From Saprospiraceae bacterium (lineage in GTDB: Bacteria; Bacteroidota; Bacteroidia; Chitinophagales; Saprospiraceae): DNA of 64,000 nucleotides. The notes under the pieces were generated by a model, which saw only the letters and a program-made list of their open reading frames with translations, was not told where the DNA came from and did no database searches. The stretch lies in the NCBI GenBank assembly GCA_028285085.1, contig JANQQI010000106.1:2224-66223 (forward strand), given 5' to 3'. The translations under genes and the position numbers were made by a program. Positions 2,321-57,235 of this stretch are shown in pieces (within the stretch, counting starts at the first letter, position 1; every line of letters starts with the position of its first letter).

Positions 2321-2549
2321 TCAGTTTTTAAGTGAGTTGTAATGTGCAATATTTAAATAAAAAATACCTGTTTTCAAACCCCTGAGGGCAAACTGTCGAT
2401 TTTCCGGGACTAAAACCTGTTTTGATGTGCCAAATGGCATCGACAATGCAGATGAAGTTATTGAGCCCTTTGATTTCTGAATTGGGCATTTATCTCAGCG
2501 GGACCTATAAAAGAAGGTGTACTTACGATCCAAACAAGTGCTCCTTAAG

Positions 2550-4979
2550 ATGAAATACTACCAATCGATCGCCCTTAGTATCTTTTTTTGGGTCTTCGCA
2601 ATGATTGCGAACATATCCGCGCAAGGCACGGTATCCGGTCGAGTGATTGATGCTCGACTGGAGCCGATTGCTTTTGCTAATGTCATGTTACTTAACGTTG
2701 CCGATTCCAGTCTCGTGCGCGGCGCCATCACCGACGAAGCTGGGCAATTTGCCTTAGATGTTGAAACTGGTAAATCTTACCTCTTAGCCGCTTCCTTTAT
2801 TGGCTTTCAAATTAACTATACCGAACCCTTTATTTTAGACCGTCCAAATACCCTAAAACTACCTGATCTGACTTTGCAGGAAAATACCGCTGAACTGGAA
2901 ACCGTGACGGTTGTGGCCGAAAAGCCATTGTTCGAACAGCAAATTGATCGAACGGTCATCAATGTACGGGAAAGTGTTACCTCCGCGGGTGGAACAGCTC
3001 TTGAGATATTAGAAAAATCGCCGGGTGTCGTTGTTGATCAAGGTAACAATGTGCTATCCTTGCTCGGTAAGCAAGGCGTCATCATCATGATCAACGGGAA
3101 GCGTAATCGTATGGATCAGGCTTCTGTCATTCAAATGCTTAGTGCTATGCCGGCCGATAATATTGAAAAGATCGAATTGATCACGACACCGCCAGCCAAT
3201 TATGATGCCGAGGGAGATGCCGGCATCATCAATATCCAATTGCGTCGGAATACCGGTGATGGATTCAATGGTAATTATGGCCTTAATACGGCCTACGGCC
3301 TGCGTCCCAAGTGGGGAGGGCATCTGAATGTCAATCTGCGACAAGGCGCCTGGAATGTATACGGGGAGGCCTCCACTAGTTGGCGATACCTCCAGCAAGA
3401 TGCGGACTATGGTCGTAGCTTGACCCAGAATGGCCAGTTGGTTGAAACGGAGGGCAACAGTTATCGTCCCGCTTTTCAGGGTTTGCATCGGGGGCAGATC
3501 GGGCTGGACTATCAACCGAACGATCGAACGATTATTGGTGCCTTGCTTTCGGGCTATACGAGTATCTGGACGCTCGATGCGCGCACCAATTCCCGTAACT
3601 TGGTAGAAGGCGAGTTGGAAGAAGAGCAAGTGCTACGCAGCGACGAACTAAATCGCTGGGACCATTGGATGGCTAATTTCAACCTTCGTCAGCAATTACG
3701 GGAAGCGGAGACACTGACTTTTGACTTCGATTATCTGTATTATGTGGATGATAATCCCACCGATTATCTAAACGAGGTTTTCGATGCTCAAAAGAATCTT
3801 ACGGGGACCCAGTCAATCCGCTCCCGCAAGGCGACGCCCATCAACTTCTGGGTAGCACGCCTGGACTATGAGCGCCAATGGAATGAGCGCTTACGATTCT
3901 CCGCGGGACTTAAAGGAACATGGTCGAGCTTTATCAATGACATCAGTGTAGAATATCTCGAAGGGAGCGAATGGGTGATCGAACCACTGTTTACCGCGCG
4001 CTACGATTTACAGGAGCGGATTGGCGCGGGCTATGTGTCGAGCGATCTGCAGCTGAGTCCCAAAACGACCATCAAAGCAGGTCTGCGTTACGAGCTAACC
4101 GTTTCCAATCTCGGTACAGAAACGATCCCCGATATTGTAGATCGTACCTACGGGCGTTGGTTCCCATCTTTTTTTGTGACCCACGATATCAGTGATCAAC
4201 AACGGATCGGGGCCTCCTTCAGCCAGCGTATTACCCGTCCGAGCTTTAATGTTATTGCACCAGCGCTCTTTTTCTGGGGCCCGAATACGCTGCTGGCGGG
4301 GAATCCTTCGGTCCAGCCGACTATCACCAGCACGAGCAAGTTAGAGTATCGATTTCGTACCATGCTCTTGACCTTGCAGTATAGCTACGATGAATTGCCC
4401 ATCGTATGGGGGCAACCTACCGTAGATGTCGCTTCGAACCAATTGGTCAATCGATCCACAAATATGAAAGACCGCCATACCGCAATGTTCTCCTTGAGTT
4501 TTCCGATTCAATTTACCTCCTGGTGGAACTCGCGTTACAACTTTGCAGCTTTCTGGCAGCGACAGCGTCCGGTTTATGAAGAAATTATTGTAACGCGAGA
4601 TGACCGCTACTACACCGCTAATTTGAGTCAACAATTTCAGCTCGGAAATCAATGGCAAACCGAGCTAAGTGGTCGTGTCAATTCAGCCCGGGCCTATGGC
4701 TTCGGCAAAATTCCCGTGCGCGGCGCCATTAATTTGGGATTACAAAAACAATGGGGGAGTAGCCGGGTGAGCTTGAATTGGACCGATATTTTTAAAACCG
4801 GCAACTTCTTCGAGATCAATTACAACGATCCTGCTTTGGAATTTCAATCGTCGTGGCTTTATCACTGGGAAGGCTCGATAGTTCGACTAAGTTATACGTA
4901 TGACTTCGGCCGGGAGCAGGTGCGCCAGAAACGTCAGCGCGCGACCGGTTCGGAGACGGAACGTAGCCGGGTCCAATAG
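2550..4979 (+). CDS. TonB-dependent-receptor-like outer membrane beta-barrel protein with CarboxypepD_reg N-terminal domain
   Basis: It has a signal peptide (MKYYQSIALSIFFWVFAMIANISAQ) and a 'GTVSGRVIDA...' carboxypeptidase-regulatory-like domain. A plug-like segment follows ('EILEKSPGV...', 'IEKIELITTPPANYDAEG'), then a long beta-rich C-terminus ending in aromatic residues. I prefer the ATG at 2550 over the GTG at 2517. Confidence 0.8.
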   Translation: MKYYQSIALSIFFWVFAMIANISAQGTVSGRVIDARLEPIAFANVMLLNVADSSLVRGAITDEAGQFALDVETGKSYLLAASFIGFQINYTEPFILDRPNTLKLPDLTLQENTAELETVTVVAEKPLFEQQIDRTVINVRESVTSAGGTALEILEKSPGVVVDQGNNVLSLLGKQGVIIMINGKRNRMDQASVIQMLSAMPADNIEKIELITTPPANYDAEGDAGIINIQLRRNTGDGFNGNYGLNTAYGLRPKWGGHLNVNLRQGAWNVYGEASTSWRYLQQDADYGRSLTQNGQLVETEGNSYRPAFQGLHRGQIGLDYQPNDRTIIGALLSGYTSIWTLDARTNSRNLVEGELEEEQVLRSDELNRWDHWMANFNLRQQLREAETLTFDFDYLYYVDDNPTDYLNEVFDAQKNLTGTQSIRSRKATPINFWVARLDYERQWNERLRFSAGLKGTWSSFINDISVEYLEGSEWVIEPLFTARYDLQERIGAGYVSSDLQLSPKTTIKAGLRYELTVSNLGTETIPDIVDRTYGRWFPSFFVTHDISDQQRIGASFSQRITRPSFNVIAPALFFWGPNTLLAGNPSVQPTITSTSKLEYRFRTMLLTLQYSYDELPIVWGQPTVDVASNQLVNRSTNMKDRHTAMFSLSFPIQFTSWWNSRYNFAAFWQRQRPVYEEIIVTRDDRYYTANLSQQFQLGNQWQTELSGRVNSARAYGFGKIPVRGAINLGLQKQWGSSRVSLNWTDIFKTGNFFEINYNDPALEFQSSWLYHWEGSIVRLSYTYDFGREQVRQKRQRATGSETERSRVQ

Positions 4980-6604: not shown

Positions 6605-8104
6605 TCATGGCATTTTATAATAGGCGACCAACTCTTCCAAAGTATTTTTTATACTCCGAAAACGATCACTTTGGGCCTCAGCGATGAGCTGCCGAAGTTT
6701 GCGGGGATATTGCTCCCGCCCAGTTTCCAGCCATTTCGCCGCATAATAAAAACCGTGGATAGTGACGTCATTGTGCGGATTAATATCCTTTTTTTTAGTG
6801 GCTTTGCGGTAGCGCAAATAATTGTTTTCTACATTTTTATAATCCTCTAAGCAAAAATAAGCGGTACCAATCGTAGAGTAGATCGCATCTGCATAGGCCT
6901 GAAACGAAACTTGCTGATAAGTGATCAAGGTTTGCTGCAGTAGTTCAATGGCCTTTTTCAAAGCTTGCTTGGTACCATCCACAAGCAACAAGACAGCATA
7001 GATAGTGGTCAGGTTGATATAGCGAATCGTGAAATGTTCTTCCAAGGTTGTATTATCCAAAATCCGCTCGCATTCTTGCATTAAATCCTCGAGTTGCTCG
7101 CGAATGACTTCTGGCATCGCAGTTGGTTCATCCCGTCGGTAGGCGGTCATGTAATTGCTGATAAAAAAATTGGCTTGCGCGTTAATGATGACCAGTTCCG
7201 CAGGATTGATATAGCTATTCCAATACAAAATATCCTGATTGCCGCGCAAAAGTTCTTTTGATTTTTCGAGTATTTCCTGGATGTTGACTTTGTACAATTG
7301 ATAGCGCAGCTTCAGATAGCGGACCCGGTGTGCAAAATCTACTAAGTAGGGAAGAAGGAGGTAACTGTATTTGTCGAGTTGGGCCTCGATAGCATTCAGT
7401 AGGTCATAGGTTGGCTCGGTAAAAAATCGATTGTCTTTTTGATAATGGAGAAAGAAGCAGTAGTTGTAACGGCTGATAATTTGTACCATCACACTCCGAT
7501 GCTCAAAATGATCGGAAAAATAGGTCAGTGTTTCCGCGGAATCCACCTTGGTGGGTTTGGCCTTCAGATGATAGCTTTGATAGGATCGCTCAAATAGAGC
7601 CGTGATGGTTTGCTGATGAGCAAGTGCGGTTTGCGCTTTTTGCAAATAATCAGTGGCTTGCCGCGAAGACTCCAGCAAAATGCTTTGCTGTGCAAGGACT
7701 TGTAAAATGCTGACTTGCGTCGAATAGTCTTCGATTTTTTCAGCTATTTCCAGCAGCCAAGTAGCCAGGCGATTGGCGTGATCTAGGGCTCCGGTATTGA
7801 TGAGCTGTTGGAAGCGAGAGAGGTTATGTTGTAAATAATGGGGATAATTTTTTGATAAAAAAGTAGTTAATCCAAAGGTGTAATGGGCTAATTGATACAG
7901 CTTCTTACGATTCTTATCATTCACCTCATTATAAACCGATTTGCAAAGGAAATCGGTCTCTTCTTCGATCAACATGTCCCGACTAATGACATCAATCAGC
8001 GCAAGAGGATAATAAGATCGAAGGCTAATGTTTTTAACGTAGTCGCGAAAGGCATTGTAGTGAAAGTCGTCTAGTAATTTGATCGTTTTAACGATAGTCA
8101 ACAT
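6605..8104 (-). CDS. Hypothetical all-helical (TPR-like) protein, 499 aa
   Basis: This is a long ORF with an ATG start and no TM or signal sequence. Its composition is helical and repeat-like. It lies co-directionally 119 bp downstream of the TonB-dependent receptor. I did not recognise a family. Confidence 0.6.
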   Translation of the reverse strand: MLTIVKTIKLLDDFHYNAFRDYVKNISLRSYYPLALIDVISRDMLIEEETDFLCKSVYNEVNDKNRKKLYQLAHYTFGLTTFLSKNYPHYLQHNLSRFQQLINTGALDHANRLATWLLEIAEKIEDYSTQVSILQVLAQQSILLESSRQATDYLQKAQTALAHQQTITALFERSYQSYHLKAKPTKVDSAETLTYFSDHFEHRSVMVQIISRYNYCFFLHYQKDNRFFTEPTYDLLNAIEAQLDKYSYLLLPYLVDFAHRVRYLKLRYQLYKVNIQEILEKSKELLRGNQDILYWNSYINPAELVIINAQANFFISNYMTAYRRDEPTAMPEVIREQLEDLMQECERILDNTTLEEHFTIRYINLTTIYAVLLLVDGTKQALKKAIELLQQTLITYQQVSFQAYADAIYSTIGTAYFCLEDYKNVENNYLRYRKATKKKDINPHNDVTIHGFYYAAKWLETGREQYPRKLRQLIAEAQSDRFRSIKNTLEELVAYYKMP

Positions 8105-10961: not shown

Positions 10962-11242
10962 TGCAATTGCAAGAAAGACGGAAAAAAGTCATTAATCCAA
11001 ACAACATTACCATAGATGTATTGTTCTAAGGTGTTATGCTTTTAATATCCTGCAAATCAGTGATCTTAATGTAAGAATTACGACTTAAAATGAGCGGTGA
11101 TTTTTAGAAACACGGCCTTGATAAGCGCGCTTGGATTATTTAGTAAAATTATAAATAAGAAAAGTAAGTGGTCTGAAAGTATTAACAATCTGATGAATTA
11201 AATAATATTGTAAAACATTGTATCATTCTAAACGGAGTTATT

Positions 11243-11770
11243 ATGATTTCTGAAAAAATGCAAGCTACGCTTAATCGGCAGATCGAACTGGAAGGCTACG
11301 CATCCTTCCTCTATCTTGCGATGGCGTCTTGGTGCGATAGCGAAGGCCTTGAAGGTTGTGCAAAATTCATGCACCGCCAATCGGCTGAAGAACGTGACCA
11401 TATGTTGCGTATCTTTTATTACATCAGTGAAGTAGATGGCCACGCCAAGGTACCGGCCATTGATCAACCACCTCTGACTTTTGACTCGATTCAATCTTTA
11501 TTTGAGCAAGTATACGCTCACGAGCAAAAAGTGACAGCTTCCATTCATAAGATCGTTGATTTGGCCAATCAGGAAAACGATTATACTACGCTCAATTTCT
11601 TGCAGTGGTATATCGAAGAACAACGCGAAGAGGAAGCACTCATGCGTACCATCTTGGATCGAATCAAATTGATCGGTGGAGGACCAATGTCACTGTATTA
11701 CATCGATCAGGAAATTGAAAAAATTAACGCCATCGAAGAAAAGGCGGCTGCAGCTGAGGCTGAAGCATAA
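11243..11770 (+). CDS. Non-haem ferritin
   Basis: 'LNRQIELEGYASFLYLAMASWCD...FMHRQSAEERDHMLRIF' carries the ferroxidase-centre E/ExxH residues. The length of 175 aa fits ferritin. Confidence 0.9.
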   Translation: MISEKMQATLNRQIELEGYASFLYLAMASWCDSEGLEGCAKFMHRQSAEERDHMLRIFYYISEVDGHAKVPAIDQPPLTFDSIQSLFEQVYAHEQKVTASIHKIVDLANQENDYTTLNFLQWYIEEQREEEALMRTILDRIKLIGGGPMSLYYIDQEIEKINAIEEKAAAAEAEA

Positions 11771-12008
11771 AAGATCTCATCGCTTCGGTCGGTCGTTTCC
11801 TATGAACTGACCGAAGTGATCTCTCTCCCCTGCTATTAATTTTCCTGCCCTTTGGTAGAAGTCCCGGTTTTTTACTAAATTGTACGAGTAGTATTCCAGT
11901 CACTACCTCTAATCGATTTCCCATTTTGGTTTAACGTTATTCAATATTCTTCCGCATCTGGTCGGAGGAGGTCAGTAAAATATTGGTCAACGCATCAGCT
12001 TAGTAAGT

Positions 12009-12452
12009 ATGACACGAGACGACATTTTGGACTATTTCGAAGAGGATGGGGCGGCTTATCGGGGCGCGGTGATCGCCATTAAATATTTTTATTTCGAATC
12101 CCAAGCCCGGCTCTATGCTGCTCGACTACGCGAAGCGGGGATTCCCTGCTTTGTCTCGAATGCGAATACGATCACGGCATTTCCCTTGGGCGATGGCGGC
12201 ATCGGTTTGCACGTACGGGCCATCGATGCGGAGTCCGCTAGCGGCATTATTCGAGAACTGGATTCTAATGACCAAACGACCGATGAAGACGATGCTTTTC
12301 GAGAGGCGGACCATGAAGATATTGCTTACCAACGCGAATTACACGAGGGGCCGCTGCGTCGGCAACGTTGGGTGTTGACGGCGATTGCGGTGATCATCCT
12401 GCTCGTTATTCTCCTTCGCTTACTAACCGGGGTGCCCATCATTAATTTATAA
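12009..12452 (+). CDS. DUF2007-like (putative signal-transducing) domain protein with C-terminal TM anchor
   Basis: 'ARLYAARLREAGIPCFVSNANT...GIGLHVRAIDAESASGIIREL' resembles DUF2007. The C-terminus has a hydrophobic helix 'WVLTAIAVIILLVILLRLL'. Confidence 0.55.
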   Translation: MTRDDILDYFEEDGAAYRGAVIAIKYFYFESQARLYAARLREAGIPCFVSNANTITAFPLGDGGIGLHVRAIDAESASGIIRELDSNDQTTDEDDAFREADHEDIAYQRELHEGPLRRQRWVLTAIAVIILLVILLRLLTGVPIINL

Positions 12453-12975
12453 TCCTTGCTGGCGACGTTTAGCCCTCTATCTAGCCCAGAAAGTTAATGC
12501 TTAAAACCTATTTTACCCGAATGCTAGGCGAGTGATCGAAAATAGACGTCTATTTGTTGTGTAAGTGATTAGCCCTGTTTGGTAGTGGTTAATTGGCTCG
12601 TTTTCAATTATTTAGACAATATTTTTTGTTTATTTTAAGTTTTTCCTATCTTGCTTTCAACAAACAAAACCAATTAACTACAAAATGAGAGTTTCACTAT
12701 CGTGTAAGTAAACTTTCTAGGAAACAATTTCAACTATTCTGAAGTAACCCCTCTTAACAATTTCTGCAAACTCGAATACCAAATGAAGTTGGGCTTATTG
12801 CAGAGATCAGATAATTAAAGGCACTTAAAATTTAATTCCATAAAGCTAATGTGATTATGACTCCCGGTTGTATTTCACATAGCTTTATGGGCTAAATCCC
12901 CAAACATTAGATTACGCTGATATTGATGAAACCATTTAGTGGGCGTAGTCTGAAAACAAACAGAGTAGCTACAAA

Positions 12976-14493
12976 ATGAAAATTCCCACGGACAATTTGT
13001 ATCAACTTATCCAGGCCATGACGGCTTCGGAGAAGCGTTACTTTAAGCGGCATTATGCTTCTGAAAAGAGCATCACTACAGAATTATTCGATTTCATTAA
13101 CGGGATGAAAGCCTACGATGAAGAAGAAGTAAAGCTGAATTTTAGCAATTCTAAAGTGGCCAAAAACCTCAAAGTTTACAAAGTTCAGCTCACCGAACTA
13201 CTTCTGAAAAGTCTCACTTCTTATCACAATAAAAAAAGTATTCGGAGTAAAATTCGAATAGGTTTGGAAGAAGTAGAGTTGTTGATGTACAAACAACTTT
13301 ATACCCTCGCTGGTAGTCGCATTCGGAAGATCAAGGAGCTGTGCTTGAAATACGAAGAACTGGAATACATCTTTTCTGTCTTATTTTTTGAACTACTCCT
13401 CAACTCCTTTTTTGACGTTAAACTACAGACTTCAGAAAATCCTATCCTTGAGGAATTAGACCAGTATACGGATAAGATTAAGAATATCTATCGGTTAAAA
13501 AAGATCAACTTTGCCTTACACGATATTAGTAATAATAAGTTGACGCATCGACTAAGCCCTGAAGAAGCAGAGCGATTCAGCCAACAACTCGAAATCGAAG
13601 CGGCACGTATCCACGAAGATCCGATTTCTTTCAACGAGCATTTTTATCTGAATAGCTCCCTGTCACTCATCAACCAACTCTTCCACCAGGATCCAACGAA
13701 GGAATATCTTTTTAAGAAAAAGAATGTTGAGCTGTTCGAAGAGAATCCACATTTTATAGAAAATCACGGCAGCTTTTACTACGCTGCGCTCTACAACTAC
13801 CTCATCGCCTGCCGCAAATTGGGCAAAAAAGCCGCTTTTGCCGAAGGTATTCGCAAGATCAAAGAACTGGCGCGGCAGCAACCCTTACTGGATCGCAATC
13901 TCATCTTTGTCTATTATCTGGAGATCAAGGAGTATTTCCGCACCGGGCAGTTTGAGACGCTGATCGCTGAAATGGAGCCGGTCGTGACGCGTCACATCAA
14001 AAAATACGATCAAAATCAAGATAACTTACCCGCACTTTGCTTCATCTATTTCGCGATGGCCCACATGGTGCTCGAGCAGTCACAACGCGTACAGTTTTAT
14101 GTGCGTCGTCTGCAAGCGATGGGTAAACAGCTAAATACGAGCTACGCCTACTTCTTCAATATTTTTGAATTGATCAGTCACTACGAGACCAATGACTTTG
14201 GTATCGTTCAGAACTTGTTGACGAGTTTCCGGCGCAAAATTGATAAGACCAAATCGGCAGAGGTAACCTTCTACTTACAGTTTCTTGACTTTATGACCGA
14301 ACTGATTCAAGCCGCTGAAAATGAGCGAACTCTACAAGCAAAATCATTCAAGCAAAATATCGTTGTACCAGCAAATGATGGTGTCAGTAATCTTTCTGAA
14401 GCCTTTTTATTGAACGATTGGCTGCAAGCCATTGAAAAGAAATGCAGCTATACAAAATGGGTGAAATCGCAATTAGTCGATTCAGAAATGTGA
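12976..14493 (+). CDS. Hypothetical all-helical protein, 505 aa
   Basis: This long ATG-initiated ORF has an N-terminal 'MTASEKRYFKRHY' motif that I associate with an uncharacterised Bacteroidota helical-protein family. The rest looks TPR-like and helical. It is preceded by a 523-bp AT-rich non-coding region. Confidence 0.65.
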   Translation: MKIPTDNLYQLIQAMTASEKRYFKRHYASEKSITTELFDFINGMKAYDEEEVKLNFSNSKVAKNLKVYKVQLTELLLKSLTSYHNKKSIRSKIRIGLEEVELLMYKQLYTLAGSRIRKIKELCLKYEELEYIFSVLFFELLLNSFFDVKLQTSENPILEELDQYTDKIKNIYRLKKINFALHDISNNKLTHRLSPEEAERFSQQLEIEAARIHEDPISFNEHFYLNSSLSLINQLFHQDPTKEYLFKKKNVELFEENPHFIENHGSFYYAALYNYLIACRKLGKKAAFAEGIRKIKELARQQPLLDRNLIFVYYLEIKEYFRTGQFETLIAEMEPVVTRHIKKYDQNQDNLPALCFIYFAMAHMVLEQSQRVQFYVRRLQAMGKQLNTSYAYFFNIFELISHYETNDFGIVQNLLTSFRRKIDKTKSAEVTFYLQFLDFMTELIQAAENERTLQAKSFKQNIVVPANDGVSNLSEAFLLNDWLQAIEKKCSYTKWVKSQLVDSEM

Positions 14494-29369: not shown

Positions 29370-29960
29370 ATGCGCTACTTCAAGTTGTACAAACCATTTG
29401 GGATGCTGAGTCAGTTTAGTCGAGAGATGCCAGAACATCGAACTTTAGCGGATCTAGACATATTCCCGTCTGAGGTTTATCCGATTGGACGATTGGACAA
29501 AGACAGCGAGGGGTTGTTGCTACTGACGGATGATAAGCAATTGAATCATCGTCTGCTCGATCCTAAATTTCAGCATCCACGCACCTATTGGGTACAGGTG
29601 GAAGGCTTGCCCGCAGTATCTGCGCTAGCTGAACTAAGAGCTGGTGTTGATATTCGGATTAACAAGAAAGTGCATCATACCTTGCCGGCGCAAGTGCAAT
29701 TGTTAGAGGAGGTACCTGATTTACCGGATCGCGATCCACCAATAAGATTTAGAGCTAATATTCCTACGCAGTGGTTAGAAATTACCTTGACGGAGGGCAA
29801 AAACCGACAAGTGCGACGGATGTGTGCCAAGGTGGGTTTTCCGGTACTGCGCTTGGTACGCAGCAGCATAGTTGGCTTGAAATTGGGACCATTAGACCCT
29901 GGTCAAGTGGAGGAATTGGACGCAAAAACGCTTTACCGATTATTAGAGATACCGCGCTAG
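29370..29960 (+). CDS. Pseudouridine synthase, RsuA/RluE family (no S4 domain)
   Basis: It has 'YFKLYKPFGMLSQF', the catalytic 'GRLDKDSEGLLLLTDD' and 'EGKNRQVRRM'. Confidence 0.9.
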   Translation: MRYFKLYKPFGMLSQFSREMPEHRTLADLDIFPSEVYPIGRLDKDSEGLLLLTDDKQLNHRLLDPKFQHPRTYWVQVEGLPAVSALAELRAGVDIRINKKVHHTLPAQVQLLEEVPDLPDRDPPIRFRANIPTQWLEITLTEGKNRQVRRMCAKVGFPVLRLVRSSIVGLKLGPLDPGQVEELDAKTLYRLLEIPR

Positions 29961-31234
29961 TTGCTACTTGACCCCATGAAAGCAAGGGCAAAAGAGACGA
30001 CAGCTATGATTAGCCCATACATAAAAACGCCGTAGCAGATACGAAGGAATTTGTATTTCTTCGCGAGAACGATGCCCAGATAATATAAATCTCGCGTCAT
30101 GGAGCTGTATAGGAAGTCCGCATCTTTGATCATTTCTGTCATTCCCCAATTGAAATCATCCAGGCTCATATTATAGAAATTACCGAAAAAAAGCAGATTG
30201 GACCGCTTTTGCTCGATATCTTCTCGGGTAAATTTTCCTTCGGTCACCTTAGGACGAGTTGACAGTGTAGCAAACACAATCGCGAGTAAACAAACCCCCA
30301 GTAGAATAATCGTTGGAATTATAAGTTTAGGATTATCTTCGAATCGGGGCACCAAGGTGGAGATAGTGATCGAAATAATGATGGCGTTGATACTCAACAT
30401 AATGTTCGCCTTGTTATCGGCGATGGAGCTCAGATTAACGTGCGTCCGATAAGTGGTACGGTACATTGTTTCAACACCACGCCCCAGACTCAATTGCTTG
30501 AGTTGTTGCTCAGTCGTCTGCGCAGGATTGCCTTTTTTCTTTCCTTTCTTCTTTCCTTTTTTTGGAAGGCGTGCCATCTCATCGACAGTCATTACCTCCT
30601 GAGGATTCAAGCGCATTTTCTGCTTTTGTAGCTGCCGAACGTGTTTTTGTTTACGCTTACCGTAGAGATCTTGCCCGACCGAAGTATGAAAACGATGATT
30701 GCTGATAAATTCGAGTTCAAATTCTACCCACTCTCGCTCGGTCATCAACAAATCACGCGTAAGCGTCAATTCCTGCCGAACGCGACTACAGCGATCCCAG
30801 TAGACCTTCTGCCCCAAATGACTCAAATCGGCATCACAAAGAATGCGATGCAGTAAATTTTGAGGATCATGGGGCATTTGGGTGGCTAGAATACAGGCTT
30901 CGATTTCGACTAGGCGTTCTTCGGGATAATTGCGGCCGCTGAGATAAGCCCGCGCGTAGCGCACGCCGCGCTCTTCGTGATTCTCAGGGCCCTTATCATA
31001 GCCTGTATCATGAAACCAAGCGGCAAGTTGAATGATTTCCAATTCTTCGGGACTGAGCTCAAAATGACTGGAGATTTCGCGGGTAGCGGCAACGACATCG
31101 AGTGTATGTTGCACATCATGGTAGGCATATTCCTTGGGCACCTGCTCAGAAATGAAATTGGTGACGTAGGCTTCTACTTCAAGTAAAATATTGTTTTCTG
31201 CCTCCATGGCGCTGCTGCTTTTAAGAAAAGTCAA
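29957..31234 (-). CDS. HD-domain phosphohydrolase fused to a Pycsar-effector-like (DUF5706-like) transmembrane domain
   Basis: The N-terminus carries the H..HD..D signature ('YHDVQHTLDV', 'AAWFHDTGY', 'CDADLSHLG'). A Lys/Gly linker 'KKGKKKGKKKG' follows. The C-terminus has 'SSIADNKANIMLSINAIII' followed by 3 predicted TM helices and 'NLLFFGNF'. Confidence 0.7.
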   Translation of the reverse strand: MTFLKSSSAMEAENNILLEVEAYVTNFISEQVPKEYAYHDVQHTLDVVAATREISSHFELSPEELEIIQLAAWFHDTGYDKGPENHEERGVRYARAYLSGRNYPEERLVEIEACILATQMPHDPQNLLHRILCDADLSHLGQKVYWDRCSRVRQELTLTRDLLMTEREWVEFELEFISNHRFHTSVGQDLYGKRKQKHVRQLQKQKMRLNPQEVMTVDEMARLPKKGKKKGKKKGNPAQTTEQQLKQLSLGRGVETMYRTTYRTHVNLSSIADNKANIMLSINAIIISITISTLVPRFEDNPKLIIPTIILLGVCLLAIVFATLSTRPKVTEGKFTREDIEQKRSNLLFFGNFYNMSLDDFNWGMTEMIKDADFLYSSMTRDLYYLGIVLAKKYKFLRICYGVFMYGLIIAVVSFALAFMGSSSN

Positions 31235-31540: not shown

Positions 31541-32998
31541 TTATTCTTGGTATTTCGACTTCAAATATTGACCCACCTGTGCATCTGACCAATTCCATCC
31601 TTTCCAACTCTTAGTTCGATTTTGGAACCTGTGAACTTTCCGATCTAACAATTCACGATGATATTCAGACACCTCGTTTCGTTCAAAATGTTCGATAAGG
31701 AGTGGAATATTCTTATTTGAAACATCCTGTAAAAGGAAAGTATAATCGATGGGGTGTTGTTGAGCCTGCTTGAGGTTGAATTGTGTAATGAAGATATCCC
31801 AATTGATGAAACAACAAACAATAAGAATACTATACCAACTCCATCCATTGATGTGTGCTAAAAAGAAGGTCGTTTTGCGCTCCGAGATTTTGAGCCAAAC
31901 TATCGTTAGACCTATGAAAACGAGACCCAAAAAAATCATGACACCGATGCGTTTGTAAGCGAGTCCGTTTGCGAGGATATAGTCGAAATTGCGCAGGAGT
32001 AGAAGAAACGCTAAAATGGCATTCTGAGCAATCCAGAAATACGCCATCCGTTTTAGTTTGCTATTTTGAGGATGGAAATTAAGATTGCGGCGGAAAAAAT
32101 AGAGTAAAATCCCCATCGCCAACAAAATTGAAAGAATCAGTAAGTATGTCCCGCCGTGTACCGCATTAGAATAATGACTAGCTTGCCAAAGTCGTTGATC
32201 CTCAAAACAAATAGCATATAAGTCGCTAACATTTGCCAAGAGCAGCAAAACATTTAAACCAATTATCATGATCCAAGCCGTTTGGAATTCTTGCTGCAAA
32301 CCCAACATGCCACGCAGCGGAGTCTTGCGGCGTTGGCGCTGTAATTGGAATCCAGTATTTGCCTCAAACTGATGAAAATTGGAAAAAGTGGATTTCGTTA
32401 ATAGACTAACCGTAAGCCATAATCCGCCAATGAAAAACAGAATTTCTCCGGGAGAAGCATTGAACGACATCCAATTGCTGAGATATTGCCAGAATCGATC
32501 AGAGAGTTGACTGAATTGGGGATTGGCCAAGTAGTATAGCAAATAAAAGAATAGGAAGGCTAAGAGAGGGAGTAAACTTAATCGAAAACTCCGCCAGGCG
32601 AGTCTTGGTCGAGGCATAAATGATGGTGTCAACCACTGATTGATCCAACGCTTTGGTCCTTCTCCAAAACTAATGATCATCAACAAAAAGGCAAAGCCAA
32701 GGAAACGCAGCTGACGCTGCTTTGCAAAACCAACCATAGTCGCAAAGGATAACAGATGTGCGACCTTACTCAATAGCGAATTTTGCCAAACCACAACTAG
32801 CCCGGTGAGTAGTGTGCCTAAAGTGGTGATCACCACCGGGCGCGAGCGATACAATTCTGGCTCTAAAGCGTACAAAATACCAATCACCAGCCAGCAAAAA
32901 ATCAAGCTGTTTAATCCCATATTAGCTTGCCAGAATAACCAATGGTAAATAATGGCTACAGCAATGATGAGGTAGGAGCGGATTATTTCTTTTTTCAT
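31541..32998 (-). CDS. Large polytopic membrane protein (DUF4153/DUF4173-like)
   Basis: The sequence predicts at least 10 hydrophobic helices. I prefer the ATG at 32998 (MKKEIIRSY..) because the longer ORF would overlap the upstream small gene. Confidence 0.6.
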   Translation of the reverse strand: MKKEIIRSYLIIAVAIIYHWLFWQANMGLNSLIFCWLVIGILYALEPELYRSRPVVITTLGTLLTGLVVVWQNSLLSKVAHLLSFATMVGFAKQRQLRFLGFAFLLMIISFGEGPKRWINQWLTPSFMPRPRLAWRSFRLSLLPLLAFLFFYLLYYLANPQFSQLSDRFWQYLSNWMSFNASPGEILFFIGGLWLTVSLLTKSTFSNFHQFEANTGFQLQRQRRKTPLRGMLGLQQEFQTAWIMIIGLNVLLLLANVSDLYAICFEDQRLWQASHYSNAVHGGTYLLILSILLAMGILLYFFRRNLNFHPQNSKLKRMAYFWIAQNAILAFLLLLRNFDYILANGLAYKRIGVMIFLGLVFIGLTIVWLKISERKTTFFLAHINGWSWYSILIVCCFINWDIFITQFNLKQAQQHPIDYTFLLQDVSNKNIPLLIEHFERNEVSEYHRELLDRKVHRFQNRTKSWKGWNWSDAQVGQYLKSKYQE

Positions 32999-33005
32999 AA
33001 CGCTT

Positions 33006-33341
33006 TTATTTTTGGTAAGGCTTAAATAAATGAACAACCCCAATTGCAGAGCTAAGCGCTCCCACAACCGGAAAGAGGAAAACGGCATTTGAAGATTCGT
33101 CTAACTGGCCATCGTACAGCGCAAGAGCTAAGAGCAAGCCGCTAACGATCAAGAAAGTGAGTCCGGCAACCAGATATCGGCCAACTGATTTTCGCCAACT
33201 ATATCGACGGATAAACATTTGATAGATCAACATCAAAAGCATTAAAGCCATGTATAACAAGCAAAGGGCAAGCGCGGTAAGAAAAACAAACAGCATGAAA
33301 GGAAGCGAATGATGCATTGTCTTTAAGGCGAGTTTAAGCAT
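33006..33341 (-). CDS. Small membrane protein (3 predicted TM helices)
   Basis: The 111-aa protein is hydrophobic. Its start overlaps the upstream gene by 8 bp, and its stop lies 7 bp before the downstream start, which is an operon layout. Confidence 0.5.
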   Translation of the reverse strand: MLKLALKTMHHSLPFMLFVFLTALALCLLYMALMLLMLIYQMFIRRYSWRKSVGRYLVAGLTFLIVSGLLLALALYDGQLDESSNAVFLFPVVGALSSAIGVVHLFKPYQK

Positions 33342-37963: not shown

Positions 37964-40900
37964 ATGAGTAACTCAACCCTAACCCTCTTGCGCTTTGTAT
38001 TGCTACTGGTACTCGGTAGTAGTGTAGCGTCAACGAGCTTTGCTCAATGTATTGGCGGCACTACCGTGTCGACCTTCAGCGGAGCGACCACCACTTACAC
38101 TTGCGTTGGCGACGGTGTCGACGACGTTATCCAATTTAAACCCAGCAGTTTTGCAACTGCTTATGCATTTATCGTTACAGATGCCGAAGACAACATTCTG
38201 GCCGTCGTCACTGGCAATTCTGTTAATTTCGAAGGCGCTGGTGAAGGTGTTTGCCGCGTTTGGGGAATGTCTTATGCCGGCGTGGTAAATAATCCCGTGG
38301 GCGAAAATATTCAAACGGCCGTCCTAACCGATTTTTGCTATATCCTATCTGACAACTTCGTTGAAGTCATCCGCGATAGTGGTGATGATGTAGACGGTGG
38401 TATGGTAGCGACGCCTTCGGGAGCAACAATGGTCTACACTTGTCCTGAGGATAATGTGGCGGACATTGTGACTTTCACCAACACGGGTAGTCCGAATGCC
38501 AATTATGCTTACGTGGTTACGGATGATCAAAACAACATTTTGGGCTTGCCTCCAGGAAATAGCCTTGATTTTGATGGCGCTGGCGACGGTGTTTGTCGTG
38601 TTTGGGGTTTGTCCTACGTCGGTAATATCATTGCAGAACCAGGCGACAATGCTGCTGAAGTGCAACTAGCGGAAGGCTGCTTCCGATTGTCAGAAAACTT
38701 CATTACCGTTATTCGTTCTAAGCCTGATGGTGGCACGGTAGCAATGCCTAATGGCAATACCGAGCGTGAAGTTTGTGCAGGAGATGGTCAGCCTGATGTG
38801 GTGATGTTTACCCATGATACCGAATCTCTGGCTCAGTACACTTACGTGATTACGGATGACCAAAACAACATTTTGGGCTTGCCTCCGGGTAATAGTCTTG
38901 ATTTTGATGGTGCTGGTCCTGGTATCTGTCGTGTTTGGGGCTTGTCTTACACCGGCAACATTACCGCTGCGGTAGGAGATAATGCAGCTATGATTGACCT
39001 GACTGACGATTGCTTCGACCTGTCTGACAACTTTATCACCATTATTCGAACCGGTGTAGACGGCGGAACTGTAGCGATGCCTTCAGGAGCTACTATGCGA
39101 TACACTTGCCCCGGTGATGGTGAAGATGACATCATCACTTTTACGAATACAAGCACTAGCGATGCGAATTATGCATATGTAATTACGGATGATGAGAATA
39201 ACATTTTGGGTATTCCTCCGGGTAATAGCCAAAACTTTGAAGGTGCCGGTACCGGTGTTTGCCGCGTATGGGGCCTGTCCTATACTGGAAACATTACTGC
39301 CCAGCCCGGCGACAACGCGGCAGAAGTGGCTTTGAGTGACGAATGCTTCGTTCTATCTGAGAATTTCATCACCGTTATTCGTGATACACCCGATGGAGGT
39401 ACGGTAGCGATGCCTAATGGTAATACCGAACGCGAAACTTGTGCTGGTGACGGCGAAGCCGATGTCGTGATGTTTACCCACGATACGGAATCTCAGGCGA
39501 ACTACGCTTACGTGATTACAGATGATGAAAATAATATTTTGGGCCTACCTCCAGGCAATAGCTTGGATTTCGAAGGTGCTGGTGAAGGTATTTGCCGCGT
39601 ATGGGGTCTATCTTATACCGGAAGCATTACGGCACAAGTAGGCGATAACGCTGCACTAGTTGATTTAACAGACGATTGCTTTGACTTATCTGACAACTTT
39701 ATCACCATTATCCGTACGGGTGTTGACGGTGGAACCGTAGCGATGCCAAACGGAGAAACTGAGCGCGAGACCTGCGCTGGCGATGGAGTTGACGACATCG
39801 TCATGTTTACCCACGTTACAGGGGCAAGTGCGAACTACGCCTACGTGATTACGGATGATGAGAATAACATTTTGGGTATTCCTCCGGGTGATAGCCAAAA
39901 CTTTGAAGGTGCTGGTGAAGGTATCTGCCGTGTATGGGGTCTGTCGTACACTGGAAACATCACTGCTCAAGCGGGTGATAATGCGGCAATGGTTGACTTA
40001 ACCGATGGCTGCTTTGATTTATCCGATAACTTTATCACCATTATCCGTACGGGCGTTGACGGTGGCACGGTAGCAATGCCAAATGGAGAAACTGAGCGTG
40101 AGACCTGCGCTGGCGACGGAGTTGACGATATCGTCATGTTTACGCACGATACAGGATCCGGTGCGAACTATGCTTACGTGATTACCGATGATGAGAATAA
40201 CATTTTGGGTATTCCTCCTGGTGATAGCCAAAACTTCGAAGGCGCCGGCGAAGGTATCTGCCGAGTATGGGGTCTGTCGTACACTGGAAATATCACTGCT
40301 CAAGCGGGTGATAATGCCGCGATGGTTGCTTTGACGGACGGTTGCTTTGATTTATCTGACAACTTTATTACGATCAATCGCATCGGCGTTGACGGTGGCA
40401 CGGTAGCAATGCCAAATGGAGAGACGGAGCGCGAGACTTGTGCTGGCGACGGTATCGACGACATCGTCATGTTTACACACGATACAGGATCCGGTGCGAA
40501 CTACGCTTACGTGATTACGGATGATGAAAATAACATTTTGGGTATTCCTCCTGGTGATAGTCAAAACTTCGAAGGCGCCGGCGAAGGTGTTTGCCGAGTA
40601 TGGGGTCTGTCGTACACCGGAAACATCACTGCTCAAGCGGGCGACAATGCCGCGATGGTTGCTTTGACGGACGGTTGCTTTGACTTATCTGACAACTTTA
40701 TTACGATCAATCGCATTGGCGTTGACGGTGGCACGGTAGCGATGCCAAACGGAGAGACGGAGCGCGAGACTTGTGCTGGCGACGGTATCGACGACATCGT
40801 GATGTTCACCCACGACACAGGATCCAGTGCGAATTACGCTTACGTGATTACGGATGATGAGAATAACATTTTGGGTATTCCTCCTGGTGATAGCCAAAAC

Positions 40901-41692
40901 TTCGAAGGCGCCGGCGAAGGTATCTGCCGCGTATGGGGTCTGTCTTACACCGGAAGCATCATTGCTCAGGCGGGTGATAATGCGGCAATGGTTGACTTGA
41001 CCGATGGCTGCTTTGATCTATCTGACAACTTTATCACCATTATCCGTAATGGCGTTGACGGCGGAATGGTAGCGATGCCAAATACCAATACTGAGGTCAC
41101 TGTTTGCGCTGGCGACGGTGAAGATGATATCATCATGTTTACCAATGATAGCGAAAGTGGCGCGAGCTACGCTTATGTGATCACGGATGACGAAAATAAC
41201 ATCTTGGGTATTCCTCCAGGTAATAGCCAAAACTTCGAAGGTGCAGGTTCAGGTATCTGCCGCGTATGGGGTTTGTCTTACACTGGAAATATTACGGCCC
41301 AAGCCGGTGACAATGCTGCACAAGTGGCATTGACCGATGGTTGCTTCGCCCTGTCTGACAACTTTATTACCGTTAATCGTCTGAGTGGCGACGACTGCCC
41401 ATCCAACTTAACCGGAAATTTGCAGGGACAGATGGTAAATGGCTCAGTGGTACCAACACAAGTAGAGTTATATCCAAATCCAGTACAGCAAACGCTGCAT
41501 ATCCAATTGGAAAAAGTACATGAGACCAATGCCCAAATCGAAATTTTGGATATCTCCGGCCGCATCCTACAGCAAATTAACACTGCTGACCAAACCATCG
41601 AGGTGAACGTAAGTCAATATGACAGCGGTTTGTACCTCGTCCGTTTGATTGAAGCTGGCCAAGTGAGTAGCTATAAATTTTTGAAACAATAA
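37964..41692 (+). CDS. 1242-aa T9SS-secreted protein built of ten tandem 111-aa repeats
   Basis: A signal peptide is followed by 10 repeats of the consensus 'DGGTVAMPNGETERETCAGDG.DDIVMFTHDT...ANYAYVITDDENNILGIPPG.SQNFEGAGEGICRVWGLSYTGNITAQAGDNAA.V.LTDGCFDLSDNFITI.R'. The C-terminal CTD reads 'LYPNPVQQTLHIQL...GLYLVRLIEAG'. Confidence 0.85.
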   Translation: MSNSTLTLLRFVLLLVLGSSVASTSFAQCIGGTTVSTFSGATTTYTCVGDGVDDVIQFKPSSFATAYAFIVTDAEDNILAVVTGNSVNFEGAGEGVCRVWGMSYAGVVNNPVGENIQTAVLTDFCYILSDNFVEVIRDSGDDVDGGMVATPSGATMVYTCPEDNVADIVTFTNTGSPNANYAYVVTDDQNNILGLPPGNSLDFDGAGDGVCRVWGLSYVGNIIAEPGDNAAEVQLAEGCFRLSENFITVIRSKPDGGTVAMPNGNTEREVCAGDGQPDVVMFTHDTESLAQYTYVITDDQNNILGLPPGNSLDFDGAGPGICRVWGLSYTGNITAAVGDNAAMIDLTDDCFDLSDNFITIIRTGVDGGTVAMPSGATMRYTCPGDGEDDIITFTNTSTSDANYAYVITDDENNILGIPPGNSQNFEGAGTGVCRVWGLSYTGNITAQPGDNAAEVALSDECFVLSENFITVIRDTPDGGTVAMPNGNTERETCAGDGEADVVMFTHDTESQANYAYVITDDENNILGLPPGNSLDFEGAGEGICRVWGLSYTGSITAQVGDNAALVDLTDDCFDLSDNFITIIRTGVDGGTVAMPNGETERETCAGDGVDDIVMFTHVTGASANYAYVITDDENNILGIPPGDSQNFEGAGEGICRVWGLSYTGNITAQAGDNAAMVDLTDGCFDLSDNFITIIRTGVDGGTVAMPNGETERETCAGDGVDDIVMFTHDTGSGANYAYVITDDENNILGIPPGDSQNFEGAGEGICRVWGLSYTGNITAQAGDNAAMVALTDGCFDLSDNFITINRIGVDGGTVAMPNGETERETCAGDGIDDIVMFTHDTGSGANYAYVITDDENNILGIPPGDSQNFEGAGEGVCRVWGLSYTGNITAQAGDNAAMVALTDGCFDLSDNFITINRIGVDGGTVAMPNGETERETCAGDGIDDIVMFTHDTGSSANYAYVITDDENNILGIPPGDSQNFEGAGEGICRVWGLSYTGSIIAQAGDNAAMVDLTDGCFDLSDNFITIIRNGVDGGMVAMPNTNTEVTVCAGDGEDDIIMFTNDSESGASYAYVITDDENNILGIPPGNSQNFEGAGSGICRVWGLSYTGNITAQAGDNAAQVALTDGCFALSDNFITVNRLSGDDCPSNLTGNLQGQMVNGSVVPTQVELYPNPVQQTLHIQLEKVHETNAQIEILDISGRILQQINTADQTIEVNVSQYDSGLYLVRLIEAGQVSSYKFLKQ
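38048..41389 (+). repeat. In-frame tandem array of one 345-bp unit plus nine 333-bp units
   Basis: Repeat starts (the GAY GGY GG codons) were counted at 38393, 38726, 39059, 39392, 39725, 40058, 40391, 40724 and 41057, an exact 333-bp period. Copies 6-9 are roughly 90% or more identical at DNA level by eye. Confidence 0.9.
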
Positions 41693-56278: not shown

Positions 56279-57235
56279 ATGGAGCCAGATCAGATGAAGT
56301 CGGAATATGAGGCCTTGAAAATCCTCAATACCATTGCTGTCGAACTGAATGCAACGGTAGAATTGGATCAAGCTCTGCAAGCTACCTTGCAGCACACCAT
56401 TGATTTGATGCAAATGCGAGCGGGCTGGATTTGGTTGTTGTATCCGGATGCCAATGCCGTCTTTTTAGCGGCGTCCTATCAATTACCCCCTGCTTTTACG
56501 AATCATCCCGAGCGGTTGTCCGGTTGGTGTTATTGTATTGATAAATATCTGGCTAACCATCTGGACAGTGCCGCTAACATTAGCGAAATATCCTGTTCTC
56601 GACTCAAGGATGTACAAGAGGAAGCTGACGGGCTACGGTATCACGCAACAGTGCCGCTTTTTGACGGCGAACAGAAAATTGGCCTGCTCAATATCGTTAG
56701 TCCCGCTTCTGTGAAATTAGACGCAGCGCAACTCCAGTTACTGCATACCATCGGTGAGCTATTGAGCAGCGCAGTGGTTCGCGCGCGTGCCTTTGAGCAG
56801 AGCAAAACCCTGGGCGCGCGCGAAGCACAGCAACGACTGGCACAAAGTTTCAAGCAACATTTGCTCCAGCCTTTGGCTTTATTGCAACAACGGCTCGGCC
56901 CGGCTTCCGCCGCGCCGGCGCAGCGCGAATTGCGCGAATTGGCCGAGCGTTTGCATGCCTTTACCCAACAGACCATCGAAGCCTTGCAACGCCCATCTAC
57001 CCGAGGGGTGCAAGATACTCCTTTTCGTTATCCCGCTTCCTTACTCACGCCCCGCGAACTCGAAGTACTGGAGCTCCTCAAACAAGGGAAAACCAATAAG
57101 GCCATTGCCGGTGAACTATTCATTTCCGAGCGCACGGTCAAGTTCCACGTCAGCACAATCTTGGATAAGCTCGGCGCCGGCAATCGAACTGAGGCCGTAC
57201 AGGTGGCGATGAAGCGAGGCATTATTACATTATAA
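56279..57235 (+). CDS. GAF-domain LuxR-family transcriptional regulator (no receiver domain)
   Basis: The N-terminal GAF-like part reads '[26 protein letters not shown]...[17 protein letters not shown]'. The C-terminal LuxR HTH reads '[44 protein letters not shown]'. Confidence 0.8.

Follow-up and report, generated by a model that had tools for sequence, protein, structure and literature searches.

A gene in a 64-kb stretch of a Saprospiraceae bacterium contig (JANQQI010000106.1, positions 2,224 to 66,223; the whole stretch of 64,000 nucleotides is called the window here) encodes a cytoplasmic HD phosphohydrolase domain joined by a lysine-rich linker to a three-transmembrane (3TM) module of the kind found in Pycsar effectors. 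The reading that we prefer, and that we give about an even chance of being right, is that this HD-3TM protein is a physiological inner-membrane protein, a Pycsar-effector homologue outside Pycsar systems, with a probable role in phosphate, polyphosphate or nucleotide homeostasis. The complete gene occupies positions 29957 to 31207 on the minus strand and encodes 416 amino acids plus a stop codon, as judged from the list of open reading frames (ORFs), the translation and the starts of homologues. An earlier note on this DNA, made from the letters alone, had pointed to the ORF at this place, where it does exist, and left its strand unstated. The mechanically derived 425-amino acid frame in the ORF list opens at a TTG codon at 31234 on the minus strand, but because the ATG at 31207 is where all homologues start, an identical 416-amino acid protein in the databases among them, with N-termini reading MEAENN or MESENS, the ATG and not the TTG is taken as the true start.

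The membrane module comprises amino acids 241-416 (29960 to 30487, minus strand) and was delimited with Pfam, PADLOC, hhalign and AlphaFold. It matches the Pfam PycTM family PF18967, formerly DUF5706, over amino acids 289-398 with an E-value of 7.9e-35 and 119.9 bits, against a cut-off of 27.2. The PADLOC PycTM model likewise matches (9.5e-15), as do the PADLOC models of the '2TM effectors' of cyclic oligonucleotide-based antiphage signalling systems (CBASS; E from 4.5e-12 to 8e-6), and these PADLOC matches span amino acids ~250-408. The Pfam and PADLOC scores go well past what chance would give. A juxtamembrane helix (RGVETMYR...SIADNKAN) is followed in the module by the first two transmembrane (TM) helices, a cytoplasmic helical insert and the third TM helix, with SIADNKAN standing directly before TM1 and NLLFFGNF lying in the cytoplasmic segment past TM2. 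Scored by Kyte-Doolittle hydropathy in a 19-residue window, the three segments, all on the minus strand, reach 2.01 for TM1 (amino acids 269-287; 30347 to 30403), 2.95 for TM2 (amino acids 295-313; 30269 to 30325) and 2.31 for TM3 (amino acids 394-412; 29972 to 30028). AlphaFold places helices at 243-284, 293-317 and 363-411 in the membrane half of the full-length protein and again in a model of the C-terminal part only, with TM1 as a long helix and TM3 as the terminal long helix in both; the membrane module modelled separately has a mean confidence score (pLDDT) of 81.

As a control, a canonical Pycsar locus was recovered by a permissive tblastn search against plasmids; it lies on a Paenarthrobacter plasmid of 42 kb and consists of a 198-amino acid PycTM that abuts a 243-amino acid cyclase, with an integrase and a zeta toxin next to them. 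A profile of the HD-3TM family aligns to this PycTM by hhalign with 93.5% probability (E=2.3e-7), and the alignment superimposes AD.K before TM1 and NLLFFG after TM2. Since both motifs align with those of a cyclase-linked PycTM, the motif-level association is correct and the homology of the membrane module to Pycsar effectors is real. The earlier note had named the two motifs, counted three TM helices and assigned the segment to the PycTM/DUF5706 family, and all of this is borne out by hydropathy, by PF18967 and by the hhalign result. In a preprint of August 2026 the module is named the 'pJV1-SpdB3 family 3TM' domain, and EcPucTM is described there, from cryo-EM, as a hexamer in the form of a cylinder, each protomer having three TM helices, of which TM2 lines a channel of ~15 Å (bioRxiv 10.64898/2026.08.12.744502). 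The 3TM topology of the window protein fits the published description of EcPucTM; by analogy, a hexameric or otherwise oligomeric assembly may be expected, in which TM2 would be the channel-lining helix.

The N-terminal half is the HD phosphohydrolase domain with a helical extension (amino acids 1-200; 30608 to 31207, minus strand), defined with Pfam, AlphaFold and Foldseek. Its metal-site residues are H34 (in VQHTLDV), H66-D67 (in WFHDTGY) and D127 (in CDADLSHLG), so that the complete HD signature reported earlier is present in full, and the Pfam HD family PF01966 matches amino acids 33-127 above its cut-off (E=2.2e-7, 31.6 bits against 22). NCBIfam adds no match above its cut-offs for the HD-3TM protein. 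The H...HD...D metal-ligand motif in an all-helical predicted fold places the domain in the HD superfamily. An HD-GYP signature (HHExxDGxGYP) is absent from the protein, and reading the sequence directly shows no GYP motif after the HD dyad. Two alignments of diverse members, one of 26 and one of 50 sequences with 36-72% identity to the window protein, were used to judge conservation, and among the 50 homologues the invariant residues of this half are H30, H34, H66-D67, H77-E78, D125-A126-D127, H130, E146, W160 and H171. The invariance of the metal site in homologues shows that it is under purifying selection.

The full-length AlphaFold2 model, built with a 50-sequence alignment, is entirely helical, with a mean pLDDT of 86, about 97 in the HD half and 75-97 in the membrane half. 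Compared with the Protein Data Bank (PDB) by Foldseek, the HD half finds as its best relatives 2pq7, 2pjq, Bacillus subtilis YpgQ (5dqv/5dqw), 3b57 and Escherichia coli YedJ, and the target-normalised TM-score is 0.62-0.74 for these YpgQ/YedJ-type hydrolases versus ~0.4 for class I phosphodiesterases of cyclic nucleoside monophosphates (cNMPs). PDE4 and PDEB1 are weak matches (TM-score on the target ~0.4, E>=0.025 in Foldseek and profile E>=0.18). A single-sequence search of PDB sequences with the protein gave marginal matches only, and a profile was needed; searched with a profile, the HD half matches 2pq7 at 3.8e-7, 3dto at 1.8e-6 and YedJ at 1.4e-5, within a range of 3.8e-7 to 2e-4 for the YpgQ/YedJ-type proteins. 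Thus the modelled HD fold is closest to YpgQ/YedJ-type hydrolases and not to cNMP phosphodiesterases. YpgQ itself is a mononuclear, Mn-dependent (d)NTP diphosphatase with H..HD..D ligands (PMC8177086).

Between the two halves lies a disordered lysine-rich linker (amino acids ~201-240; 30488 to 30607, minus strand), recognised by its pLDDT and composition. Its sequence is LPKKGKKKGKKKGNPA, which holds the lysine- and glycine-rich stretch KKGKKKGKKKG singled out in the earlier note. AlphaFold predicts disorder at ~204-237, where the pLDDT drops under 50 for residues 204-207 and 213-237. Across the family the linker measures 24-67 amino acids, is lysine-rich in every case, with a median lysine content of 29% versus 9.7% for the whole protein, and is the least conserved region, with a mean column identity of 0.29. 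In the predicted structure the HD and 3TM halves fold independently of each other and are joined by a flexible tether.

The window protein is an ordinary member of its family, with collinear full-length similarity, the order HD-linker-3TM and all family-invariant residues. A homologue search returned 5,539 significant matches, and the best 120, which were inspected, are ~403-470 amino acids long and 60-72% identical over 94-100% of the query; all carry both HD and PycTM, and the named sources among them are Saprospiraceae or Bacteroidota metagenome-assembled genomes. Among 1.84 billion cluster representatives, at least 743 clusters (50% identity) match at E<=1e-30, and nearly all of the best 150 representatives match over their full length of ~400 amino acids. 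When one genome per species was scanned, at least 586 species proved to carry a relative, and searches with a distant member extended the family to the Cytophagales (Roseivirga, Reichenbachiella, Fulvivirga, Ohtaekwangia and Cyclobacteriaceae) and to the Flavobacteriales (Maribacter). A pattern-seeded scan of 2.9 million viral contigs gave no relative, and neither did tblastn against 50,697 phage records. Between the window protein and its closest relatives the identity is 71%, on a par with ferritin (73-74%) and above the flanking genes (DUF1361 54%, Coq4-like 45-46%, MpaB 38-41% and FadL 43-45%), so that the gene ranks among the best conserved of its neighbourhood. Such a level of conservation is unlike that of a fast-evolving defence gene, and the family is very large, of fixed architecture and vertically inherited across Bacteroidota.

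The names that members carry, 'Pycsar system effector family protein' or 'DUF5706 domain-containing protein' at NCBI and 'predicted metal-dependent HD superfamily phosphohydrolase' at JGI, derive from domains and not from experiments. Databases already show the architecture, but none of its members has been the subject of a study; literature searches found no paper mentioning an HD-PycTM fusion, in line with the earlier description of the protein as uncharacterised.

The pointer to phosphate comes from the neighbours of distant family members. The distant set consists of 86 clustered loci, 80 of them metagenome loci chosen by similarity to the Fulvitalea protein and six annotated or looked up, and with two further plasmid loci examined separately the distant loci number 88. 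The HD-3TM proteins of the 86 loci have a median pairwise identity of 42%. The commonest neighbour, present in 52-53 of the 86 loci and usually divergent upstream, encodes a protein of ~1,220 amino acids that combines Metallophos and Omp85, and its N-terminal domain resembles purple acid phosphatases (E=1.3e-6). Two clusters of SdiA-regulated/phytase-like beta-propellers of ~285 amino acids occur in 32 and 11 loci, a GAF-containing protein of ~789 amino acids in 40, the polyphosphate kinase PPK1 in 15, and a SixA-like His_Phos_1 protein of 166 amino acids and a second Metallophos protein in seven each. When the count is confined to the 37 full-flank loci, those with at least 4 kb on either side, the Metallophos-Omp85 gene is found in 31 and at least one phospho-metabolism partner in 34. 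Furthermore, the linkage is kept through at least six gene orders and orientations; survival through so many arrangements is the mark of functional association between the HD-3TM and phospho-genes of the distant loci and not of inherited synteny. The Metallophos-Omp85 outer-membrane protein, one or two propellers and the HD-3TM protein, often with PPK1, the SixA-like protein and the second Metallophos protein, form a conserved and apparently undescribed gene module of Bacteroidota. Examples among loci L081-L166 are L086 (3347-12305), L090 (3331-9200), L099 and L161. The 789-amino acid protein (for instance on the minus strand of L133, 9392-11761) has a weak GAF match only and is the second commonest neighbour outside Saprospiraceae; its gene is usually convergent and immediately downstream of the HD-3TM gene (22 of the 37 full-flank loci), and no PDB relative of it was found.

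Within the window's own clade the setting is a different one. A same-clade set of 80 Saprospiraceae/Lewinellaceae loci was assembled and the neighbours clustered de novo. The synteny of the window is kept in ~10 close relatives, which have the upstream block TM214-HTH-Coq4-like-MpaB-DUF1361-(DUF4153). Ferritin lies directly downstream in 20 of the 80 loci and within the fetched flanks in 21, and other recurrent neighbours are DUF2805, a DUF2007-like ORF, a ~500-amino acid ORF, an SRPBCC/GyrI-like protein, an extracytoplasmic function (ECF) sigma factor, Tgt, Mpg, ParC and VanX. These recurrent Saprospiraceae neighbours are all housekeeping genes, with no cyclase among them.

Taken together, these elements outline how the protein could work. 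The 3TM module would oligomerise in the inner membrane as a hexameric cylinder with TM2 lining a channel, by analogy with EcPucTM; the conserved cytoplasmic face (RGxETxxR...ADxKxN and NLLFFGNF) may bind a nucleotide or phospho-ligand; and the tethered HD domain may hydrolyse a nucleotide or phospho-ester at the membrane and so keep the ligand low. The protein would then be a regulated, self-limiting physiological device and not a suicide pore, and the family's partners suggest that its setting is the cell envelope and its business the homeostasis of phosphate, polyphosphate or nucleotides.

Several points weigh against this proposal. The Metallophos-Omp85 neighbour occurs in none of the 80 Saprospiraceae loci and a propeller in one, and neither is in the window; since the phosphate module is absent from the window's clade, a phosphate role would pass to the window gene by orthology only. 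The closest solved relatives of the HD half are mostly uncharacterised structural-genomics proteins, YpgQ being the only one characterised, and a Foldseek search of the PDB with the membrane module found no solved relative (best E=0.17). The characterised relatives of the 3TM module are all toxic or pore-forming (PycTM, PucTM and, in E. coli, SpdB3), and given these relatives a lethal role of the HD-3TM protein is possible. Lastly, membrane-anchored class III cyclases stand beside the HD-3TM gene in four of the 88 distant loci.

These cyclases are the starting point for the alternative that survives best, which we nevertheless consider unlikely: a cNMP-responsive physiological effector, in which the 3TM module senses a cNMP made by membrane-anchored class III cyclases usually encoded elsewhere, and the HD domain resets the signal, so that the protein would be a cNMP output device outside defence. 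Class III cyclases were found within ~5 kb in four of 168 loci overall. The cyclase of Fulvitalea plasmid pFA2 lies 262 bp downstream on the same strand (L081, 6802-8010); that of a Persicobacter plasmid is convergent and 42% identical to it (L168, 9161-10348), so that the two have opposite orientations relative to the HD-3TM gene; that of L101 (9056-10441) is convergent and overlaps the 3' end of the HD-3TM gene; and L099, like L101 a metagenome contig, has two within 5 kb (2299-3367 and 11241-12500). The cyclases of all four loci are of a sensory type anchored by six TM helices, unlike the soluble 243-amino acid cyclase of the control locus. Together with the AD.K and NLLFFG motifs, common to the family and to cyclase-linked PycTM, these four distant loci give hints of a cNMP link. 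On the other side, their share of the distant loci is small, none of the 80 Saprospiraceae loci has an adjacent cyclase partner, and the HD fold is nearer to NTP and nucleotide hydrolases than to cNMP phosphodiesterases; the enrichment of cyclases over background density was estimated roughly and could be chance. The window agrees with its clade in this respect, since the lack of a nearby cyclase stated in the earlier note extends to all 64 kb: Pfam shows no cyclase within 8 kb on either side of the gene, a phmmer search of the six-frame ORFs of the entire window with four class III cyclase domains as queries finds none, and Pfam and PADLOC on the 42 large ORFs show no cyclase or defence family, with the 25 most frequent of 65 Pfam families listed. 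The association with cyclases is minor and nothing like an obligatory PycC-PycTM operon.

Three Saprospiraceae loci gave weak cyclase matches that were examined as candidate partners and rejected. The loci are closely related to one another, and the matches are sensors of ~1,040-1,080 amino acids encoded on the strand opposite to the HD-3TM gene (L020, 4738-7977; L036, 4430-7549; L074, 4392-7538, all minus), each with a TM segment and a C-terminal canonical class III cyclase domain. Their genes lie 1.3-2.5 kb upstream of the HD-3TM gene, and the products are probably unrelated signalling proteins.

An improbable alternative is that the protein is a membrane-tethered HD enzyme only, with the 3TM module serving as an anchor or oligomerisation scaffold without channel or gating. 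The invariant HD metal site, the flexible linker between independently folded modules and the housekeeping contexts would all suit it. A passive anchor, however, is as a rule the region of a protein with the lowest conservation, and here the membrane module is the most conserved part, with a mean column identity of 0.63-0.77. The HD core stands at 0.53, the juxtamembrane helix at 0.77, and TM1 and the cytoplasmic insert at 0.73 each. About 35 positions of the module are invariant among the 50 homologues, including R243, R250, H256, S260, A263-D264, K266 and N268, the entire stretch N337-F344, Y367, D373 and K384-Y385, and many of them are polar residues in the cytoplasm. The membrane module and its cytoplasmic loops are thus more conserved than the enzyme domain, and the module therefore does not appear to be a passive anchor. 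Among the Foldseek matches of the membrane module, BAR domains, the V-ATPase c-ring and the nicotinic acetylcholine receptor (nAChR) were set aside as generic long-helix matches only.

Quite doubtful is the idea that the protein is a self-contained abortive-infection effector, in which a nucleotide induced by the phage is sensed or processed by the HD domain and the PycTM-like pore is thereby freed to kill the infected cell, without any cyclase. The significant homology to Pycsar and CBASS membrane effectors and the toxicity or pore formation of relatives speak for it, as does the name 'Pycsar system effector family protein' that NCBI already gives to members, but that name reflects domain-level membership only. 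Against it stand the core-like, vertical distribution and high sequence conservation of the family, the lack of any defence-island context in the 168 loci, and the lack of viral or phage relatives in the searches described above. Furthermore, the genuine Pycsar control locus is quite different, with its effector abutting a cyclase, its integrase and zeta toxin, and its plasmid location. The earlier note had offered two roles, a self-contained nucleotide-gated membrane effector and a signal-degrading immunity or regulatory variant, and had proposed surveying the neighbourhoods of homologues for cyclases or defence islands; the core-like distribution, the absence of defence islands and the absence of viral relatives tell against both as defence roles, and the neighbourhoods proved essentially housekeeping-linked at the genomic level, with phosphoesterases and polyphosphate kinase as partners. 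The second role, in which the HD domain would hydrolyse cyclic CMP or cyclic UMP to guard against self-activation of a Pycsar-like system encoded elsewhere, is very improbable, for although the HD superfamily includes cyclic-nucleotide phosphodiesterases and PDE4 is among the weak Foldseek matches, the window holds no Pycsar cyclase or second effector, the family is far wider and more conserved than Pycsar-type defence loci appear to be, and the phosphodiesterase TM-scores stay well below the YpgQ/YedJ values in a domain that has no HD-GYP motif.

Returning to the physiological reading, a bolder form of it can be put forward tentatively, as a proposal of low but real probability: the HD-3TM family would be the housekeeping counterpart, and possibly the source, of the Pycsar, Pucsar and CBASS effectors, and its members hexameric inner-membrane channels, gated by a nucleotide or phospho-ligand and reset when their own HD domain destroys it, that are partners of a phosphate module and, in a few lineages, are driven by membrane-anchored cyclases. 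If the physiological reading is true, the label 'Pycsar system effector family protein' sits on thousands of Bacteroidota genes that are not Pycsar, and any tally of defence systems that relies on this label, or on PF18967 by itself, would be too high. The 3TM module, so far known solely as a suicide pore, would gain a conserved, non-lethal physiological use, and the family would offer a natural system for studying how 3TM channels are gated and switched off. Moreover, the linkage to the purple-acid-phosphatase-Omp85 protein, the propellers and PPK1 would point to an undescribed envelope phosphate module in Bacteroidota. The window gene itself is a solitary, ordinary family member, and its immediate value is moderate.

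In the window the gene is flanked by a convergent PseudoU_synth_2 gene on the plus strand (29370-29960) and a DUF4153 membrane protein gene (31541-33088), both assigned by Pfam, which correspond to the pseudouridine synthase and membrane protein listed as neighbours in the earlier note. The pseudouridine synthase and HD-3TM genes share 4 bp at their stop codons (29957-29960), an overlap that leaves no space for a terminator. Within 8 kb, one flank holds an APH phosphotransferase, an acyl-CoA dehydrogenase, an SDR, a protein sorted by the type IX secretion system (T9SS), DUF2071, YndJ, DUF1990 and the pseudouridine synthase, and the other holds DUF4153, two small TM ORFs, DUF1361, MpaB, a Coq4-like protein, a PadR-like helix-turn-helix (HTH) protein and a TM protein. 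There is no island-like anomaly of GC content at the gene, a scan of the window found no tRNAs, and Rfam over the whole window returned no family. Scans for Sigma-70 promoters and terminators around the gene gave nothing above shuffled expectation, with a tool that does not cover Bacteroidota promoters. No CD-NTase, SAVED or other CBASS gene was found by Pfam and PADLOC among the 42 large ORFs. PADLOC did call a 'CARF3--CARF' match (5.3e-8) at 56279-57235 (plus strand), which was rejected as a CARF sensor, because the match covers only the last ~50 residues, the HTH part, of what is a 318-amino acid GAF-LuxR/GerE regulator; the defence call is a false positive. Elsewhere, the 1,242-amino acid T9SS-sorted protein (Por_Secre_tail) at 37964-41692 (plus strand) has odd whole-protein Pfam matches to DUF5680, S1_2 and SepRS_C, with zero significant stretches, which probably arise from repeats or low-complexity sequence.

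In close relatives the order, all on one strand, is DUF1361-(DUF4153)-HD-3TM-ferritin-DUF2007-like ORF-~500-amino acid ORF. In the window the ferritin block is intact, comprising ferritin (11243-11728), the DUF2007-like ORF (12018-12365) and the ~500-amino acid ORF (12976-14430, or 12976-14493 in a side list; plus strand; no PADLOC match), and it lies on the strand opposite to the HD-3TM gene and 15-19 kb from it. This relocation implies that the region was rearranged and that one breakpoint fell exactly where the HD-3TM gene has its 3' end, and ferritin was rejected as a functional partner, since its separation in the window shows the linkage to be dispensable. In 11 related loci a homologue of the 12976-14493 ORF (35% identical) follows downstream of the HD-3TM gene, and the one in L003 has no Pfam match. 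A second ~500-amino acid ORF in the window, at 6605-8104 (minus strand), is likewise without a PADLOC match.

Set beside known systems, the window protein is nearest in its membrane half to PycTM and PucTM, with which it has in common a homologous module of three TM helices, a cytoplasmic insert between TM2 and TM3, and the AD.K and NLLFFG motifs. The canonical proteins are stand-alone, of ~160-200 amino acids, or fused to a cyclic nucleotide-binding domain (CNBD), and are encoded in a tight operon with a soluble PycC or PucC cyclase in mobile or defence islands, whereas the window protein has an N-terminal HD domain, no cyclase partner, a chromosomal location, vertical inheritance and housekeeping neighbours. 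Pycsar systems, as defined in the literature (PMC11224242; PMC13069673; bioRxiv 10.64898/2026.08.12.744502), have an effector with a PycTM (3TM) or CNBD-TIR domain, a PycC-type class III cyclase encoded next to it, and a patchy distribution in defence islands or mobile elements, and they bring about abortive infection through membrane disruption triggered by cyclic CMP or cyclic UMP. The effector domain is present here; the cyclase next door and the defence or mobile setting are lacking, and the gene should therefore not be filed as a Pycsar system. The CBASS '2TM' effectors (PDLC00700, PDLC00691 and others) show profile similarity across the whole membrane module, and their models have 173-184 positions and no HD fusion.

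Two further comparisons bear on a role outside defence. SpdB3, a Streptomyces plasmid-spread protein that is toxic when over-expressed (PMC4447253), has been assigned to the 3TM family (bioRxiv 10.64898/2026.08.12.744502) and lends the family its name. It shows that the family has members outside phage defence; its likeness to the window protein is by the published family assignment only, and SpdB3 is plasmid-borne, actinobacterial and without an HD domain, unlike the window protein. The self-limiting logic that we propose has an analogue. Some Csm6/CARF effectors that respond to cyclic oligoadenylate are self-limiting through a built-in ring-nuclease activity; the analogy would be one of logic only, as the folds and ligands are unrelated. 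For the enzymatic half, the YpgQ/YedJ-type proteins (5dqv/5dqw, 3gw7, 2pq7, 2pjq, 3b57 and 3dto) are the best match to amino acids 1-200 in both profile and fold, with H..HD..D kept, and to these soluble, stand-alone proteins the window HD domain adds the invariant residues H30, H77-E78 and H130 and a tether to the membrane.

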